IMG/VR virus record: IMGVR_UViG_3300029142_000001 | Span: 64,001 to 79,360 of that record | Direction: 5' to 3' (one strand) | Source: a virus | Taxonomy: Duplodnaviria > Heunggongvirae > Uroviricota > Caudoviricetes | Length of the DNA stretch: 15,360 bases | Shown: positions 1 through 9,891 of the stretch, one piece after another | Layout: every line of letters begins with the position of its first letter | Numbering within the stretch: the stretch's first letter is position 1 | The notes under the pieces: generated by a model | What the model saw: only the letters and a program-made list of their open reading frames with translations | Told to the model about the DNA's origin: nothing | Databases searched by the model: none | Position numbers and translations under genes: made by a program

Positions 1-48
1 GAGTATGAATTTCAAGGTAAAAAATGTCTTGTAAAATTTAGATGGTGA
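1..48 (+). CDS. 3' end of an upstream ORF (partial; ...EYEFQGKKCLVKFRW*)
   Basis: Frame 1 is open from base 1 to TGA at 46-48; that stop lies inside the 5' acceptor strand of tRNA-His. Confidence 0.55.
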   Translation, partial: EYEFQGKKCLVKFRW

Positions 49-117
49 ATGTAGCATAAATGGTTAATGCATCCGGTTGTGACCCGGAGGAAGGCGGATC
101 GTTACCGCTCGCTCACC
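44..117 (+). tRNA. tRNA-His(GUG) with encoded G-1
   Basis: G44 = G-1 opposite C117 (C73). Acceptor GTGAATG/CGCTCAC has one A-C mismatch. D stem GCAT/ATGC, anticodon arm TCCGG-TT GTG AC-CCGGA, T arm GGCGG-ATCGTTA-CCGCT. Confidence 0.93.
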
Positions 118-164
118 CTTATAACCAGACATTCATTTGTCGCCGGATGATGTAACCGGCAAGC

Positions 165-2819: not shown

Positions 2820-3011
2820 ATGAGACAGGCACATTCAAAGAAAAAGGAAATTGAATTTACTCGTGGGAATGCTCGAATTCGTATGAGCATCACAGAAAAA
2901 AATTACAACAGAATTCTTGACATTCTAGCAGATCATGGCTATACTGATATGGAGAATATTGTAAGAAAATCAGTTGTTGTGAGAACTAGAAATATTCGAA
3001 AGAAGAACTAA
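2820..3011 (+). CDS. small basic hypothetical protein (63 aa)
   Basis: Start re-assigned from 2745 to ATG 2820, which follows AGGAG (2808-2812). Confidence 0.7.
   Translation: MRQAHSKKKEIEFTRGNARIRMSITEKNYNRILDILADHGYTDMENIVRKSVVVRTRNIRKKN
2917..2945 (+). promoter_or_regulatory. intragenic sigma70-type promoter
   Basis: TTGACA (2917-2922), 17 nt, TATACT (2940-2945), about 75 nt upstream of tRNA-Leu(UAA). Confidence 0.65.
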
Positions 3012-3022
3012 CGGACATAAAC

Positions 3023-3098
3023 GACCCGGTAGCCCAATTTGGCAGGAGGCAACAGACTTAAAATCTGTACAGTCTGGGTTCGAATCCCAGTCGGGTCA
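3023..3098 (+). tRNA. tRNA-Leu(UAA), short variable loop
   Basis: Acceptor GACCCGG/TCGGGTC, A73; anticodon arm ACAGA-CT TAA AA-TCTGT; 5-nt variable loop ACAGT. Confidence 0.93.
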
Positions 3099-3174
3099 TT
3101 TTGAAACGGAACGACATGGAGGGGTCGTAATAATAGAAAATCCAATCCCACCAGCCTCATTACTGGAAATAAAA

Positions 3175-3528
3175 ATGAGAAATTTCGCACAAAGAAAATT
3201 AAGCAAAGCAGTAGTTAAAATATTTCAAAAAAAGACAGATCGTTTTACTTTTACTCAATCTGGATCTGGCATAACTCGTTGGATTATGCATAATCCAGAT
3301 ATTCCAGAATTAACAATTCGATTTGATTCTGATATAACATGGATGGATTTTATCATACCTTTTTTCAGTCCTGATTTTTATTACAATGGAGAAATATTAA
3401 AATTTGGATATATCCAACATATAAAAATTGTTCTGACTTCTATTCGAATAAGAAATAGATTAAAATCAAAATTGCGTAGTTTACATAATATGGAACTAGA
3501 TAAAATTGTAAGATATGCAAATAGTTAA
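3175..3528 (+). CDS. hypothetical protein (117 aa)
   Basis: Fills the gap between tRNA-Leu(UAA) and the tRNA-like RNA; RBS is weak. Confidence 0.65.
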   Translation: MRNFAQRKLSKAVVKIFQKKTDRFTFTQSGSGITRWIMHNPDIPELTIRFDSDITWMDFIIPFFSPDFYYNGEILKFGYIQHIKIVLTSIRIRNRLKSKLRSLHNMELDKIVRYANS

Positions 3529-3535
3529 ATTTTGA

Positions 3536-3651
3536 GAAGTTGTGGCGGAATGGCATACGCACGGGGGCACCCGATTGACGGTTCGAGTCCGTAAAGTACC
3601 CGGCAGGGGAACATAATGGATCCATTGTAGGTTCGAATCCTACCAACTTCA
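3536..3651 (+). ncRNA. tRNA-like RNA 1 (116 nt): no anticodon loop, two T-arms, two GGCA-capped hairpins
   Basis: Perfect acceptor GAAGTTG/CAACTTC + A73, Leu-type D arm GCG-GAATGGCATA-CGC, T arms at 3578-3592 and 3627-3643, GGCA tetraloop hairpins at 3562-3573 and 3599-3608. Confidence 0.8.
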
Positions 3652-3667
3652 TTTGAAGGAAATATAA

Positions 3668-3847
3668 ATGAATTATGTAGAATGTAAAAATTGTAAAGGT
3701 AAGGGACATGTTTTAAATGGTGCAGCCGCATTTGGTCTTACTGTTTTCAGTATTTTTATTGTTCCTCTTGAAAGAAATGATCCTAATGGAGTGACGAGAG
3801 ATAAATGTTCAGCATGTAACGGTACTGGATACCGTAAATTGAAATAA
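3668..3847 (+). CDS. 59-aa microprotein with two DnaJ-type CxxCxGxG zinc-binding motifs and a hydrophobic core
   Basis: Not in the ORF track. GAAGGA at 3655-3660. Translation: MNYVECKNCKGKGHVLNGAAAFGLTVFSIFIVPLERNDPNGVTRDKCSACNGTGYRKLK*. Confidence 0.85.
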   Translation: MNYVECKNCKGKGHVLNGAAAFGLTVFSIFIVPLERNDPNGVTRDKCSACNGTGYRKLK

Positions 3848-3851
3848 TTTT

Positions 3852-3999
3852 GAGGATATAGTGTAGTGGTAGCACAATTCCAGGGTTCAGTTAGAGGTTC
3901 GATTCCTCTCTTCCTCGTTTAAAAAATGTATGGGGGAGTAGTTTAACGGGAAAACGGTTCCATCAGGTTTAAGGTCAAGTTCGATTCTTGATATCCTCG
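3852..3999 (+). ncRNA. tRNA-like RNA 2 (148 nt): two anticodon-less tRNA bodies with cross-paired acceptor strands
   Basis: Two D arms (3861-3875, 3941-3955) and two T arms (3893-3909, 3975-3991). 3852-3858 pairs 7/7 with 3992-3998; 3932-3938 pairs with 3910-3916 (5 WC + 2 GU). Confidence 0.8.
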
Positions 4000-4025
4000 T
4001 TTTAAAGTTAAATGGAGTATATCAA

Positions 4026-4124
4026 ATGCCTAGAGATCTCAGTATTGAACAGATTAGATGCTTGAACAATTGGCCACATGGAACAGTGGGAAGAAACAAG
4101 TTAAAGAAATATATGCTCCTATAG
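4026..4124 (+). CDS. possible 32-aa microprotein
   Basis: GGAG at 4014-4017, ATG 4026, MPRDLSIEQIRCLNNWPHGTVGRNKLKKYMLL*; stop lies inside tRNA-Leu(CAA). Confidence 0.45.
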   Translation: MPRDLSIEQIRCLNNWPHGTVGRNKLKKYMLL

Positions 4125-4188
4125 CCCAACTGGAAGAGGCGTTTCACTCAAAATGAAAATGTTGCTGGTTCGAGTCCAGCTAGGAGTA
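4115..4188 (+). tRNA. tRNA-Leu(CAA), short variable loop
   Basis: Acceptor GCTCCTA/TAGGAGT, A73; anticodon arm TTTCA-CT CAA AA-TGAAA; 5-nt variable loop ATGTT. Confidence 0.93.
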
Positions 4189-4215
4189 TTTTTAAATTTA
4201 CCCAGAGGAAATATT

Positions 4216-4494
4216 ATGACAACAGTAAAAGAGTTAATTGAAATTCTTAAAACACTTAATCAAGATGATATTGTGATTTTGAGTTCGGACCCAGAAGGAA
4301 ACTCGTATTCTCCTATTCATCCAGGAGTAGAAATTGACATGAAATATGCAGGCGGTCAAGTTCGTCCTGCTAAACTCACTGATCATCATAGAAAACTTGG
4401 ATACACAGAAGAAGATCTTTTTGATCCGGTTTTTGATTACGAGTATGATCCAGTTCCGGTTTCTTGTATTTGCCTGTATCCTAAATTTCATTAG
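4216..4494 (+). CDS. small phage hypothetical protein (TVKELIEIL...SSDPEGNSYSP)
   Basis: The track start at 4153 lies inside tRNA-Leu; ATG 4216 follows GAGGA (4205-4209). Confidence 0.8.
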   Translation: MTTVKELIEILKTLNQDDIVILSSDPEGNSYSPIHPGVEIDMKYAGGQVRPAKLTDHHRKLGYTEEDLFDPVFDYEYDPVPVSCICLYPKFH

Positions 4495-4502
4495 AACTTT
4501 GC

Positions 4503-4531
4503 TTGACTTTCCTTTATTCACTCACTATACT
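4503..4531 (+). promoter_or_regulatory. sigma70-type promoter followed by leader hairpin and RBS
   Basis: TTGACT, 17 nt, TATACT; then GGGA-ATAG-TCCC hairpin and AGGAG. Confidence 0.8.
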
Positions 4532-4565
4532 TGTCTCAGGGAATAGTCCCCAAAGGAGATTATCT

Positions 4566-4745
4566 ATGACATTCGTTGTTTATCAAGGTGTGAATGAGAT
4601 TATTATCACCACGGGAGAAAAAGAAAAGAGTATGTTGGCAAAATATTCGGATCGTAATTTTGAGGAAGATTATGATCGAGATGAATTTGATGATGTGACT
4701 TTAATTGAAATTAGCTCCCTTGTAAAATTGGGAATGGTCATTTAA
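4566..4745 (+). CDS. small acidic hypothetical protein (59 aa)
   Basis: Start re-assigned to ATG 4566 behind AGGAG; the track's TTG start at 4503 is the -35 box. Confidence 0.75.
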   Translation: MTFVVYQGVNEIIITTGEKEKSMLAKYSDRNFEEDYDRDEFDDVTLIEISSLVKLGMVI

Positions 4746-6412: not shown

Positions 6413-6429
6413 AGGTGAAGGAGAATATA

Positions 6430-7359
6430 ATGAAGCGTTCAGAAACAAAGTACAATGTTGGAGTGGTCATCGGTCGATTCCAGGTCCACGAACTTCATCC
6501 TGGACATGTAGAGCTTTTGAACTGGGTGAATGACAATCATGATACAATGATTGTCTTTCTTGGAAATTCTCCCGTTCTGAGTCGATCAAACCCTCTTCCA
6601 TATAATGCTCGTCGAATGATGATCCAAGAACAATATCCCGATGCTCTGGTACTTCCTCTGGATGATATGAGAGACGATAGGCTCTGGTCGGATCAAGTAG
6701 ATGATATGATCAGTCGGGTTGTCCGTCCTACCGAGACCGTATGCATTTACGGGTCTCGTGATAGCTTCATTCCTCACTACACTGGAAAGAACCAAACACA
6801 AGCGATGGAAGGGACCGGACATTTCTGGTCAGGATCCGAAGTCCGTGAAAAGATCGCAAACAAGACAGGAAAGAATGCAGATTTTCGGGCGGGGGCAATC
6901 TATGCTGCAAACGGAGCATATCCCCGAGTGATTCCTACGGTAGATGCGGCGGTATTTACAAAGGATGGCGATATCGTAATGGTCCGTAAGAACGGTGAAG
7001 ATAAGCTTCGATTCCCTGGTGGATATGTCGAGCCCGGATCTACATTTGCTTCAACCATTAAGAGAGAAATCCGCGAAGAGGTTGGAGATCTTGAAGTGAA
7101 TGTTTCTTATATTGGTGATCTTGAAATCGATGATTGGCGTTACCGAGGGAATCAGGATATTATTCATACTACAGTTTTCCGAGCGGATATTCTTTGGGGA
7201 GGTATTGGAAGATTCACTGATGTAGCAGAGATTGCGGAAACTGATATCGTAACTCAGACAAATCTACGACTTGGATATAGGGAATCTGTGGTTCCAGAAC
7301 ATCACGCAATTGTTGAAATGCTTATTATGGAAGGAATGCTTGATAATGAACCCGCTTGA
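6430..7359 (+). CDS. nadM: bifunctional NMN adenylyltransferase / Nudix (ADP-ribose) hydrolase, NadM-Nudix (NatV-like)
   Basis: IGRFQ, HPGH (HxGH) and NPL motifs; C-terminal Nudix box GGYVEPGSTFASTIKREIREEVG. Start re-assigned from GTG 6415 to ATG 6430. Confidence 0.92.
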   Translation: MKRSETKYNVGVVIGRFQVHELHPGHVELLNWVNDNHDTMIVFLGNSPVLSRSNPLPYNARRMMIQEQYPDALVLPLDDMRDDRLWSDQVDDMISRVVRPTETVCIYGSRDSFIPHYTGKNQTQAMEGTGHFWSGSEVREKIANKTGKNADFRAGAIYAANGAYPRVIPTVDAAVFTKDGDIVMVRKNGEDKLRFPGGYVEPGSTFASTIKREIREEVGDLEVNVSYIGDLEIDDWRYRGNQDIIHTTVFRADILWGGIGRFTDVAEIAETDIVTQTNLRLGYRESVVPEHHAIVEMLIMEGMLDNEPA

Positions 7360-8368: not shown

Positions 8369-8510
8369 TTCTGGAAAGAAACAGCTTGTAGGAATTGTGG
8401 ATAGATCAACGGAAATTCCAACTCCAACAAAAGATCAAATAGAATTGTTCGGAGTTAAAAGATATTATGTCACAGATGTATTTTGCATGGAACAGGAGAA
8501 AAATAAATGA
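8334..8510 (+). CDS. small hypothetical protein (58 aa)
   Basis: ATG 8334 behind GGGAG; its stop overlaps the next start (ATGA). Confidence 0.55.
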   Translation: MKDTKMLWREFDSGKKQLVGIVDRSTEIPTPTKDQIELFGVKRYYVTDVFCMEQEKNK

Positions 8511-9514
8511 CCATTACAAAGGAAAATAAAACAGTCGTAAAATTAATGGCCATTAGATCTAAAGATGAAATGGTTATTGCTTTTGATGGATATAATAATC
8601 GTTCTATTCCAAATTTTATTTTTAATGATGAATTGAAGGCAGAAAAGACATTTAGTAATTCGTGGTTTAAAATTCCTACATCTGAGATCAAATCTATTCA
8701 TGCTCCTGGAAAGAAGGTTATAGATTCTCAAAAATGGATTCTAAGGGATGAATCTTTGGAAAGTGCTAAAATTCCTTTGACTATTCGATATGATAAAGTA
8801 GAAATGGATGAGGATGGGGATTGGTCAGCACCTGAATATATGATGTATCAGTCGTTGTATAAGTTGGATGTCACATATAAGGAACTTTCACCAGAAGAAA
8901 TCGATTTCGAAATTAGATATATTTGTGATGATCTAAAAGAATTACCGAATGTTAGTAATTTTAAATATCCTACCGGAACAAGATGGGATAGATATGCAGG
9001 CAAGCATCATCCTACAAATATCACATACAAAGATATTGTAACTGGACCACAGGCAGCAATTTTTTATCCTGAAATTCTTCATCCTCTGCTTCCTTGTGAA
9101 TTAACACCGGAGCAATCATTCAAAATTATTCATAATTTCCTAGAAGAAAACATTGATAGATCTGTCGCATCATTCACTAGTTATGAGAATATTCAAATTC
9201 TTCATGTGAAAAAGATCATCGGATTACATACTCCATACTCTCATAAAGTGGATGTATCATCATTTCGATCTCGTAGGCCAAAATATGAAGATAGAATGGT
9301 TAAGACACGAGATAAAGAAATCTATACAATTGATGCAAAGAAGGGTGCAAATATTCCTGTATTCAGTGGAGATAGCCTAGAAGATCTTGACCGTAACATT
9401 TCTACCTATCTAAATGCGTTGATCGAATATATCAATACACCTGTTGTGGATTGCCCTACATGTGATGGATTTGGTATTGTTCATAAAGAATTCAAAGATC
9501 CTAGAGAGGAATAA
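8507..9514 (+). CDS. hypothetical protein with a C-terminal CPTCDGFG motif (335 aa)
   Basis: Long ORF, AGGAG upstream, a single DnaJ-type CxxCxGxG. Confidence 0.85.
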   Translation: MTITKENKTVVKLMAIRSKDEMVIAFDGYNNRSIPNFIFNDELKAEKTFSNSWFKIPTSEIKSIHAPGKKVIDSQKWILRDESLESAKIPLTIRYDKVEMDEDGDWSAPEYMMYQSLYKLDVTYKELSPEEIDFEIRYICDDLKELPNVSNFKYPTGTRWDRYAGKHHPTNITYKDIVTGPQAAIFYPEILHPLLPCELTPEQSFKIIHNFLEENIDRSVASFTSYENIQILHVKKIIGLHTPYSHKVDVSSFRSRRPKYEDRMVKTRDKEIYTIDAKKGANIPVFSGDSLEDLDRNISTYLNALIEYINTPVVDCPTCDGFGIVHKEFKDPREE

Positions 9515-9516
9515 GA

Positions 9517-9891
9517 ATGAAAATTATTGTTTGTGGTGGTCGTGATTTCACAGACTATAAATACATTAATTCAAATTTAGACGCATTACATCAAAGTCAA
9601 CCAATTACTTGTGTTGTACATGGAGATGCCCGTGGAGTAGATCGAGCAGCAGCACAATGGGCAACAAAGAATAAAATCATGGTGATTCCATATCCAGCAG
9701 ATTGGAACAAATATGGAAATAGTGCTGGTCCTATCCGCAATACTCTTATGTTAAAAGAAGAACGCCCGGAAGCAGTAGTTGCATTTCCGGGCGGTGCGGG
9801 AACTGATCATATGAAGAAAATTACGAAAAGAGAGAATATCCGATTGATCGAATTTGATCCAGATATGAATGTTCTTGAATTCTTATCCTGA
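9517..9891 (+). CDS. SLOG-superfamily protein (YspA/DUF2493-like)
   Basis: IIVCGGRDF, VVHGDARGVD, PADW..YG.SAGPIRN and VAFPGGAGT motifs. Confidence 0.9.
   Translation: MKIIVCGGRDFTDYKYINSNLDALHQSQPITCVVHGDARGVDRAAAQWATKNKIMVIPYPADWNKYGNSAGPIRNTLMLKEERPEAVVAFPGGAGTDHMKKITKRENIRLIEFDPDMNVLEFLS

Follow-up and report, generated by a model that had tools for sequence, protein, structure and literature searches.

A 148-nt element at positions 3852-3999 of a 15,360-nt stretch of phage DNA (the window; positions 64,001 to 79,360 of IMG/VR record IMGVR_UViG_3300029142_000001) is best explained as a double tRNA-like RNA, in which a circularly permuted tRNA-like body is nested within a second one. The window is the final 15 kb of a 79-kb record (35% GC, estimated to be 37% complete) from an uncultured T4-like phage. 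According to this explanation, to which we give a probability of roughly 0.6, the element would yield one structured RNA of about 148 nt and not two tRNAs, belongs to a class recurring in phages, and may have a role related to conflict. The crossed, nested fold, as modeled, is likely. A role in the phage-host conflict over tRNA is a more tentative proposal, and less likely than not.

The element is made up by two units (unit 1, 3852-3917; unit 2, 3932-3999), each with intact D and T arms. Its parts are listed below in the order in which they occur; WC denotes Watson-Crick pairs, MFE the minimum free energy fold.

3852-3858, + strand: 5' strand of the outer acceptor stem, GAGGAUA; 7/7 WC pairs with 3992-3998, formed in the MFE fold
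3861-3875, + strand: D arm 1, 4-bp stem and loop AGUGGUA; Rfam tRNA alignment and MFE fold
3877-3887, + strand: central strand a, AUUCC-A-GGGUU; in the class layout, 5' strand of the outer and 3' strand of the inner anticodon stem
3893-3909, + strand: T arm 1, AGAGG-UUCGAUU-CCUCU; Rfam tRNA alignment and MFE fold
3910-3917, + strand: 3' strand of the inner acceptor stem, CUUCCUC, and discriminator G; pairs with 3932-3938
3918-3931, + strand: A/U-rich linker of 14 nt closing the inner acceptor stem; unpaired in the MFE fold
3932-3938, + strand: 5' strand of the inner acceptor stem, GGGGGAG; 5 WC and 2 G-U pairs with 3910-3916
3941-3955, + strand: D arm 2, GUUU-AACGGGA-AAAC; Rfam alignment and class-model alignment
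3957-3969, + strand: central strand b, GUUCC-AUC-AGGUU; partner of 3877-3887 in the class layout, weak pairing
3975-3991, + strand: T arm 2, UCAAG-UUCGAUU-CUUGA; Rfam tRNA alignment and MFE fold
3992-3999, + strand: 3' strand of the outer acceptor stem, UAUCCUC, and discriminator G; pairs with 3852-3858

Both units align end to end with the Rfam tRNA model (RF00005), scoring 38.3 (unit 1) and 27.3 bits (unit 2) at a gathering score of 29. The 17-nt anticodon arm is replaced by 11 nt in unit 1 and by 12-13 nt in unit 2, and the D and T arms are spaced 17 and 19 nt apart, respectively. ARAGORN calls neither unit as a tRNA, and neither features the 7-bp acceptor stem in cis, or the 5-bp anticodon stem with a 7-nt loop, of canonical tRNAs. 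A preliminary description of the sequence had reported two tRNA-like units devoid of anticodon loops, and this is confirmed by the Rfam alignment and the missing ARAGORN calls. Having no anticodon loop, the element cannot decode. The two T stems are not the same in sequence, nor are the two D stems, and pairing is kept in all four. The element is identical in four assemblies, and an assembly artefact was rejected on this ground. Samples with this phage are JGI 3300029145 and SRR4039770/1.

The acceptor strands of the same unit match poorly. Those of unit 1 form five WC pairs, with a U-U and an A-C mismatch, those of unit 2 three WC and three G-U pairs, with an A-A mismatch. If the strands are exchanged, the outer stem (3852-3858/3992-3998) is formed by seven WC pairs out of seven, and the inner stem (3932-3938/3910-3916) by five WC and two G-U pairs. 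At positions 6-7 and 66-67 the two units have different residues on either strand, whose complementarity is seen only in the crossed arrangement. Both units terminate with CCUC-G-UUU. The resulting fold is nested, the inner acceptor stem being closed by a loop of 15 nt, if the discriminator G is counted. The preliminary description had anticipated all these features, and had proposed a comparison of folding energies. The crossed structure has an energy of -29.0 kcal/mol, and the cis structure of -17.8 kcal/mol, the former being 11 kcal/mol better. The minimum-energy fold found by RNAfold adopts the crossed stems. In the precursor, the outer stem is formed with pair probabilities of 0.75-1.0 and the inner stem with 0.94-0.97, compared with 0 for either cis stem. 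The folding z-score (-0.97) is unremarkable overall, as usual for tRNA-like RNAs.

Two further arguments for the exchange hold in part. Unit 1 had been regarded as unable to close its own anticodon stem. This is true of the full 5-pair register, as only A3882 separates AUUCC from GGGUU, but a 4-pair stem with a triloop can be drawn. Similarly, A15 of unit 2 gains a canonical Levitt partner in U3892, as proposed, but G15 of unit 1 faces a G.

The pairing of acceptor strands was monitored in the same genome, and in other phages. A perfect 7/7 acceptor stem in cis is found in 32 of the 33 tRNAs of this genome. Non-cognate acceptor strands pair fully in 14 out of 1056 combinations, and full reciprocal pairing occurs in 2 out of 528 gene pairs. 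A geometry scan was carried out on 726 adjacent pairs of units with D and T arms, residing in about 250 tRNA-rich phage loci. Four cases combine two crossed stems of at least 6 pairs with poorer cis stems, namely the element and three RNAs of the class described below. The nesting of a permuted tRNA-like body at the anticodon position of another one, as originally suggested, is supported by energetics, by the acceptor statistics of the genome, and by independent phage RNAs.

The independent RNAs L216:349-502, L158:7682-7829 and L258:5897-6049 were found by a generic pattern (a shortened unit plus a second T loop) and by the geometry scan; L264:10128-10280(-) was added by a follow-up scan. Their modules are in the order outer 5' half, inner 3' half, loop, inner 5' half, outer 3' half, and the contigs come from unrelated phages. 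In these first four class RNAs, about 150 nt long, the cis acceptor strands are unrelated (2-4 pairs out of 7), and the crossed stems are perfect. Two 5-bp WC helices connect the units head to head, around an internal loop of 4 x 7-8 nt. The inner body of this first type is derived from tRNA-Met, its stem strands and variable loop matching phage tRNA-Met genes. In a MAFFT-based alignment of the four distinct sequences, 168 of 168 cells pair in the crossed arrangement, with 8 compensatory pairs, and the cis acceptors in 36-46% of cells only. A metagenome scan with the class pattern returned the same four sequences.

The class is defined by alignment A5 and by R2, a covariance model of the crossed structure. 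R2 matches were found in a 278-kb jumbo-phage contig (L089:4820-4968, 88 bits; L089:4671-4812, 65 bits). A second type of double resides beside the first, at L216:193-334, L258:5730-5871, L264:10306-10447(-) and L158:7525-7671. Over nine distinct doubles, 98.3% of cells pair, and compensatory changes are seen in 28 of 42 pairs (outer acceptor 6/7, inner acceptor 7/7, central helices 4/5 and 3/5), slid controls pairing in 33-41% of cells; the nine sequences had been fitted to R2 and are biased towards it, a bias from which the four-sequence MAFFT result is free. The loop of the inner acceptor is 4-9 nt long in the class. Rfam holds no family for the double form, class loci giving sub-threshold tRNA and YrlA matches only; a family already in Rfam had been named as a finding that would refute the proposal. 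On comparative sequence grounds, the nested, domain-swapped double tRNA is a real RNA design under selection in phages.

Larger assortments of related RNAs were observed in the same contigs. At least five adjacent RNAs, 85-154 nt long and built on a tRNA chassis, form arrays at L216:53-722, L258:5590-6270 plus 7041-7164, and L158:7525-8335. Each has acceptor stem, D arm, anticodon stem and T arm, the anticodon loop being swapped for inserts that differ from one RNA to the other; two of the RNAs are the nested doubles. The MFE fold of an RNA of about 170 nt in the jumbo phage (L089:4236-4402) resembles that of the class. Its T arm, its 6-bp hairpin (UCAG loop), its class-II-like D arm and one more hairpin lie within an outer stem, a CCCCC/GGGGG helix and a 7-bp helix. 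The R2 score is no higher than 32.9 bits, and the RNA has not been counted as a class member.

In module order and segment lengths the element is identical to the class. In both, a 7-nt acceptor strand is followed by 2 nt, a D arm, 1 nt, a 5-nt stem strand and the hinge; beyond the hinge come a second 5-nt stem strand, a 5-nt variable loop, a T arm, a 7-nt acceptor strand, the discriminator and a loop, after which the series is repeated. Crossed acceptors, the location in a tRNA cluster, and the lack of an anticodon loop are also shared. As in the class, the 5' end of unit 1 and the 3' end of unit 2 form the outer acceptor, and the inner acceptor hairpin directly follows T arm 1, to be followed in turn by 2 nt and D arm 2. 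With filters off, the element aligns to R2 positions 1-153 at 39.2 bits, and 39 of the 42 consensus pairs are formed. The class RNAs differ in having no cis acceptor complementarity, strong and covarying 5-bp central helices, and a 4 x 7-8 nt hinge; the element in having a 1 x 3 nt hinge, central helices with mismatches, acceptor stems that resemble each other, and a linker of greater length. The element is a weak-hinged instance of a recurrent class found in tRNA clusters of large phages. Judged from its sequence, it appears to share the architecture of the class; homology to the class is not claimed.

Several results weigh against the favored explanation. At default filters R2 misses the element, and the 39.2 bits obtained without filters compare with 34.7 bits for a single tRNA. 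Acceptor positions 1-5 are nearly identical in the two units and compatible with either fold, so that the choice between crossed and cis pairing comes down to two base pairs per stem. The swapped anticodon strands had been thought to form two central helices. These are made up by A-U/U-U/U-U/C-G/C-G (in the register of the class model) and U-G/U-U/G-U/G-C/G-C, having 3/5 and 4/5 standard pairs with U-U mismatches, and their pair probability is below 0.03; they are not predicted here. The gene neighbourhoods of class members, analyzed with Pfam, gave no functional clue. The closest syntenic relative, L137 (58% identity in the DUF932 gene, similar order of tRNAs), lacks the element, with only 18 nt between tRNA-Leu(UAA) and tRNA-Leu(CAA).

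No homolog other than identical copies was found by DNA, pattern, model or protein-anchored searches. No match to the element was obtained with blastn in 50,697 phage records. IMG/VR scans with patterns made from the D arm and T loop of unit 1, from those of unit 2, and from both acceptor ends hit unrelated tRNAs or single look-alikes without anticodon only, and searches of GTDB genomes unrelated repeats only. A model restricted to the arms of the element (R1) found nothing in 23 loci, nor in 17 entire viral records linked by their DUF932 gene, and the element is not present in the closest DUF932 relatives (54-59% identity). Two neighbouring open reading frames (ORFs) were used as anchors. The 59-aa ORF has no relative in IMG/VR, and the 117-aa ORF none among 5.8 billion proteins; the three further contigs carrying the 117-aa gene are 100% identical over 1200 nt. 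The covariation evidence is therefore that of the class.

The element resides in a 22-kb array, in which ARAGORN finds the 33 tRNA genes of the 79-kb record. None of these genes encodes CCA, and all have T-rich sequence at the 3' side. RtcB, RNA ligases and a nicotinamide phosphoribosyltransferase are encoded in the same record, and neither tRNA-Asp nor tRNA-Pro is called in it. Several tRNAs of the array are 86 nt long and feature long extra arms (Met at 49272, Asn at 62499). In tRNA-Lys (G000 60856-60929) and tRNA-His (window 45-118) the T loop is unusual, AUCGUUA instead of UUCGAAU. Features surrounding the element are as follows.

2917-2945, + strand: sigma-70-like promoter TTGACA-17-TATACT; 11/12 match to the consensus, a consensus match only
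3536-3651, + strand: tRNA-like RNA of 116 nt, with a perfect 7/7 WC acceptor stem; Rfam tRNA 39.9 bits with a large insertion, missed by ARAGORN
3668-3847, + strand: 59-aa ORF, with the stop codon 4 nt upstream of the element

No terminator-like site was found on the + strand within 2900-4600, and the next promoter match on this strand at the 10/12 level is at 4503. The stretch between the two promoter sites includes tRNA-Leu(UAA), the 117-aa ORF, the 116-nt tRNA-like RNA, the 59-aa ORF, the element and tRNA-Leu(CAA), and may, as far as such signals tell, correspond to one transcription unit. The 59-aa ORF encodes a hydrophobic segment between two CxxCxGxG motifs resembling zinc knuckles.

Other RNAs of composite type were found in this phage and in relatives. 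The 116-nt RNA is formed by a D arm, two hairpins with GGCA tetraloops, a palindromic AAUG-GAUC-CAUU hairpin and two T arms, and has no anticodon loop. A third composite lies upstream of the window.

G000 about 62114-62247 (L006 about 9114-9247): 9-bp perfect terminal stem AACCAUAUU/AAUAUGGUU round two T arms

In this RNA a 6-bp hairpin (AUAUCU/AGAUAU) directly follows T arm 1. In L137, an RNA of about 90 nt (L137:1866-1955) has an 8-bp perfect stem (GGUUAGUG/CACUAACC), and two T arms 25 nt apart. Because these three RNAs share it, outer closure over two T arms is habitual in the phage lineage. A weak match to the tmRNA model (20 bits, threshold 47), at L006:656-765 (G000 53656-53765), falls into a gap of 250 nt between tRNA-Gly and tRNA-Thr and may be another tRNA-like RNA.

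Stand-alone and single forms also occur. L159:2968-3109(-) is a 142-nt double with short anticodon regions; its outer stem has 7/7 WC pairs, and its inner stem is weak (5/7). It is found a few bases behind a sigma-70-like TTGCAA...TATACT site, in a 12.4-kb locus in which ARAGORN finds no tRNA gene. Its identity to the element is about 50%, mainly at generic tRNA positions, and a search for the same pattern detected two identical copies only (L159 and L194:1111-1252(-)). In single look-alikes (L002:10757-10826, L003:3915-3977(-), L100, L049, L040/L095) a tetraloop hairpin or about 10 nt replace the anticodon arm. All close in cis except L002:10757-10826, which has two terminal acceptor mismatches.

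The alternative that survives best is that the element is evolutionary debris, made up by decayed or recombined tRNA copies in an array with fast turnover. The crossed complementarity would be left over, for example, from an exchange of halves between neighbours, and no functional RNA would be made. Scrambled tRNA fragments do occur in phage arrays (e.g., L047:1940-2060), the element is a singleton, missing in L137, and its central helices are degenerate. Yet all D and T arms are intact, with stems that differ between the units and still pair, and the anticodon regions have been shortened to similar lengths, which is not random damage. The order 5'A-3'B-5'B-3'A would require two independent events, if produced by deletion, and the same order is clearly selected in other phages. 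Two further composites with perfect terminal stems are found in the same genome. Debris is rather unlikely.

It is very unlikely that the units are two separate mini-tRNA-like RNAs, each excised and folded in cis with an imperfect acceptor. Genes of this sort, truncated at the anticodon and closing in cis, are known in phage contigs (the L003, L100, L049 and L040/L095 look-alikes listed above), unit 1 exceeds the Rfam tRNA gathering threshold, and in a nearest-neighbour model the cut heterodimer is no stabler than homodimers. On the other side, both units have cis mismatches at 6:67 and 7:66, beside the T stem, the cis stems have pair probability 0 in a fold which is 11 kcal/mol worse, and nearly all real tRNAs of the genome (32/33) have perfect cis stems.

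The element may alternatively be a processing or stability signal only, a mark for RNase P and RNase Z which separates and stabilises the flanking small mRNAs (the 59-aa ORF at 3668-3847 and downstream ORFs), the released RNA being idle. The punctuation of transcripts by tRNAs is an established principle of mitochondrial processing. The element does begin 4 nt past the stop codon of the 59-aa ORF, and the promoter-to-promoter unit mixes tRNAs and small ORFs, with no terminator found. A single tRNA-like fold would suffice for this purpose, however, and real tRNAs already flank the ORFs. Moreover, the nested layout is conserved in other phages, with covariation in the inner body and hinge, and the comparable L159 double is a solitary one, with a sigma-70-like promoter of its own and no tRNA close by. 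A signal with no further role is highly improbable.

Finally, a permuted or split pre-tRNA of the type found in Cyanidioschyzon and some archaea, whose pieces would be joined by RtcB or RNA ligases after a cut at the hinge to give one or two decoding tRNAs, would agree with the presence of RtcB and several RNA ligases in the phage, with the lack of called tRNA-Asp and tRNA-Pro genes in the record, and with permuted tRNA genes maturing via circular intermediates (discussed in 10.1101/312249), but was rejected and has a negligible chance of being correct, as the unpaired hinge nucleotides (1 + 3 here, 4 + 7-8 in the class) are too few for two 7-nt anticodon loops, the stems adjoining the hinge are mismatched, no bulge-helix-bulge motif is seen in the sequence of the element, and no splicing endonuclease of that type is known in bacteria or phages (10.1101/312249).

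In the single nested RNA that we favor, the outer body would be formed by D arm 1 and T arm 2, and the inner, circularly permuted body by D arm 2 and T arm 1. The molecule would thus offer two tRNA top halves, with two elbows, joined at what would be their anticodon arms. It would be co-transcribed with the adjoining tRNAs. The outer stem, stacked on T arm 2, would be a substrate for host RNase P and 3'-end enzymes, to which addition of CCA would follow, as in tRNA biology. By analogy with the YrlA RNAs described below, the inner stem may be opened too, as its 7 bp stack on T arm 1 and lead into G73 and an unpaired A/U loop. Such an opening does not seem obligatory. Several class members cap the inner stem with 4 nt, one with the GNRA-type loop GCAA, and the cut two-strand complex, without strong central helices, is only about 8 kcal/mol better than the free strands, and equal to homodimers, in the nearest-neighbour model. 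Acceptor and elbow surfaces would be presented to tRNA-binding host factors or repair enzymes with no anticodon to use or cleave, and the RNA could act as a decoy, a sponge or an adaptor. Phage tRNAs have been shown to counter tRNA-cleaving defences (discussed in PMC13096335), and tRNA-like RNAs have been linked to RtcB repair loci (10.1101/312249). The phage itself encodes RNA-repair enzymes (RtcB, RNA ligases), NAD-metabolism genes and a Gad1 homolog, a context in favor of such a role. For a decoy, the preliminary description had proposed toxSAS, nucleotidyltransferase and GNAT toxins as candidate targets.

With both stems opened, the RNA would become two-stranded and pseudo-symmetric, would have two elbows and two CCA ends, perhaps both aminoacylated, and would act stoichiometrically on the host tRNA machinery. 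If it is charged, G73 at the two heads would point to the Asp, Glu, Gln, Ser or Trp types. This product is distinctly unlikely. It might soak up toxins that cut or modify the acceptor end or elbow of tRNA, or fill two neighbouring tRNA sites, for example on the ribosome or a dimeric enzyme; if real, it would represent a new type of counter-defence made of RNA only. As to its origin, the element could illustrate how doubles arise: a mini-tRNA would be duplicated in tandem, and the copies would then co-vary in a crossed fashion, an RNA analogue of domain swapping.

Downstream of the tRNA array, the window features the following genes.

6415-7359: NUDIX plus cytidylyltransferase-like protein
8507-9514: homolog of Gad1 (anti-Gabija), E value 3e-42
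9517-9891: YAcAr-domain protein, beside the Gad1 homolog

Their grouping looks like an anti-defence neighbourhood. The DUF932 gene is also found in the window.

The usual explanations for tRNA genes in phages are codon usage and the replacement of tRNAs destroyed by host defences. Two tRNA top halves with no anticodon can serve neither purpose. The conservation of the layout in several unrelated large phages, with compensatory changes, suggests that phages use the shape of tRNA itself as a tool. The class looks like a new kind of tRNA look-alike. The architecture had been regarded as undescribed, and no published double or nested phage tRNA mimic was found in the literature; a circularly permuted tRNA mimic as such has been published, the YrlA RNA.

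The Y RNAs of the YrlA type (RF02553), found in bacteria and mycobacteriophages, share with the inner body of the element (3893-3955) a T arm, an acceptor-like stem closed by a loop, and a D arm, and also lack an anticodon loop. The fold of YrlA is a true L (crystal structure 6CU1, 10.1101/312249). In M. smegmatis it has a 7-bp stem, and is cut by RNase P and then provided with CCA (Chen et al. 2014, PMC4201824; 10.1101/312249), shorter YrlA stems not being cut by RNase P (PMC4201824; 10.1101/312249). RtcB, to whose repair operons YrlA loci are linked, is also carried by this phage. In YrlA, the permuted body sits on a stem which binds Ro60 (GNCGAA motif), and a TROVE gene is adjacent; in the element, it sits inside a second complete tRNA-like body. 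No match to a TROVE gene was found in the 79-kb record, which is 37% complete. The Rfam YrlA model has no match in the element at E values up to 10, and the GNCGAA motif was not seen by eye. Membership in YrlA was rejected because the Rfam match and the Ro-binding stem are missing, the ends forming a tRNA acceptor stem.

Permuted and split tRNA genes of Cyanidioschyzon merolae and some archaea have the same order of 3' half, linker and 5' half, with an acceptor loop opened by RNase P and RNase Z. They mature to decoding tRNAs by bulge-helix-bulge splicing, in contrast to the element, which has neither the motif nor an anticodon loop to restore. The species 1 and 2 RNAs of T4 (rnaC, rnaD) are small stable RNAs of unknown function, also located in a T4-type tRNA cluster, with a T arm and a terminal stem at the end of rnaC. 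By inspection, their architecture differs from that of the element: a single T arm is combined with long hairpins, and a second tRNA body is missing. If phages do use the tRNA shape as a tool, the nested design would extend the short list of tRNA mimics (tmRNA, YrlA, viral tRNA-like structures), and may bear on a 50-year-old question, the role of the stable non-tRNA RNAs encoded in T4-type tRNA clusters.

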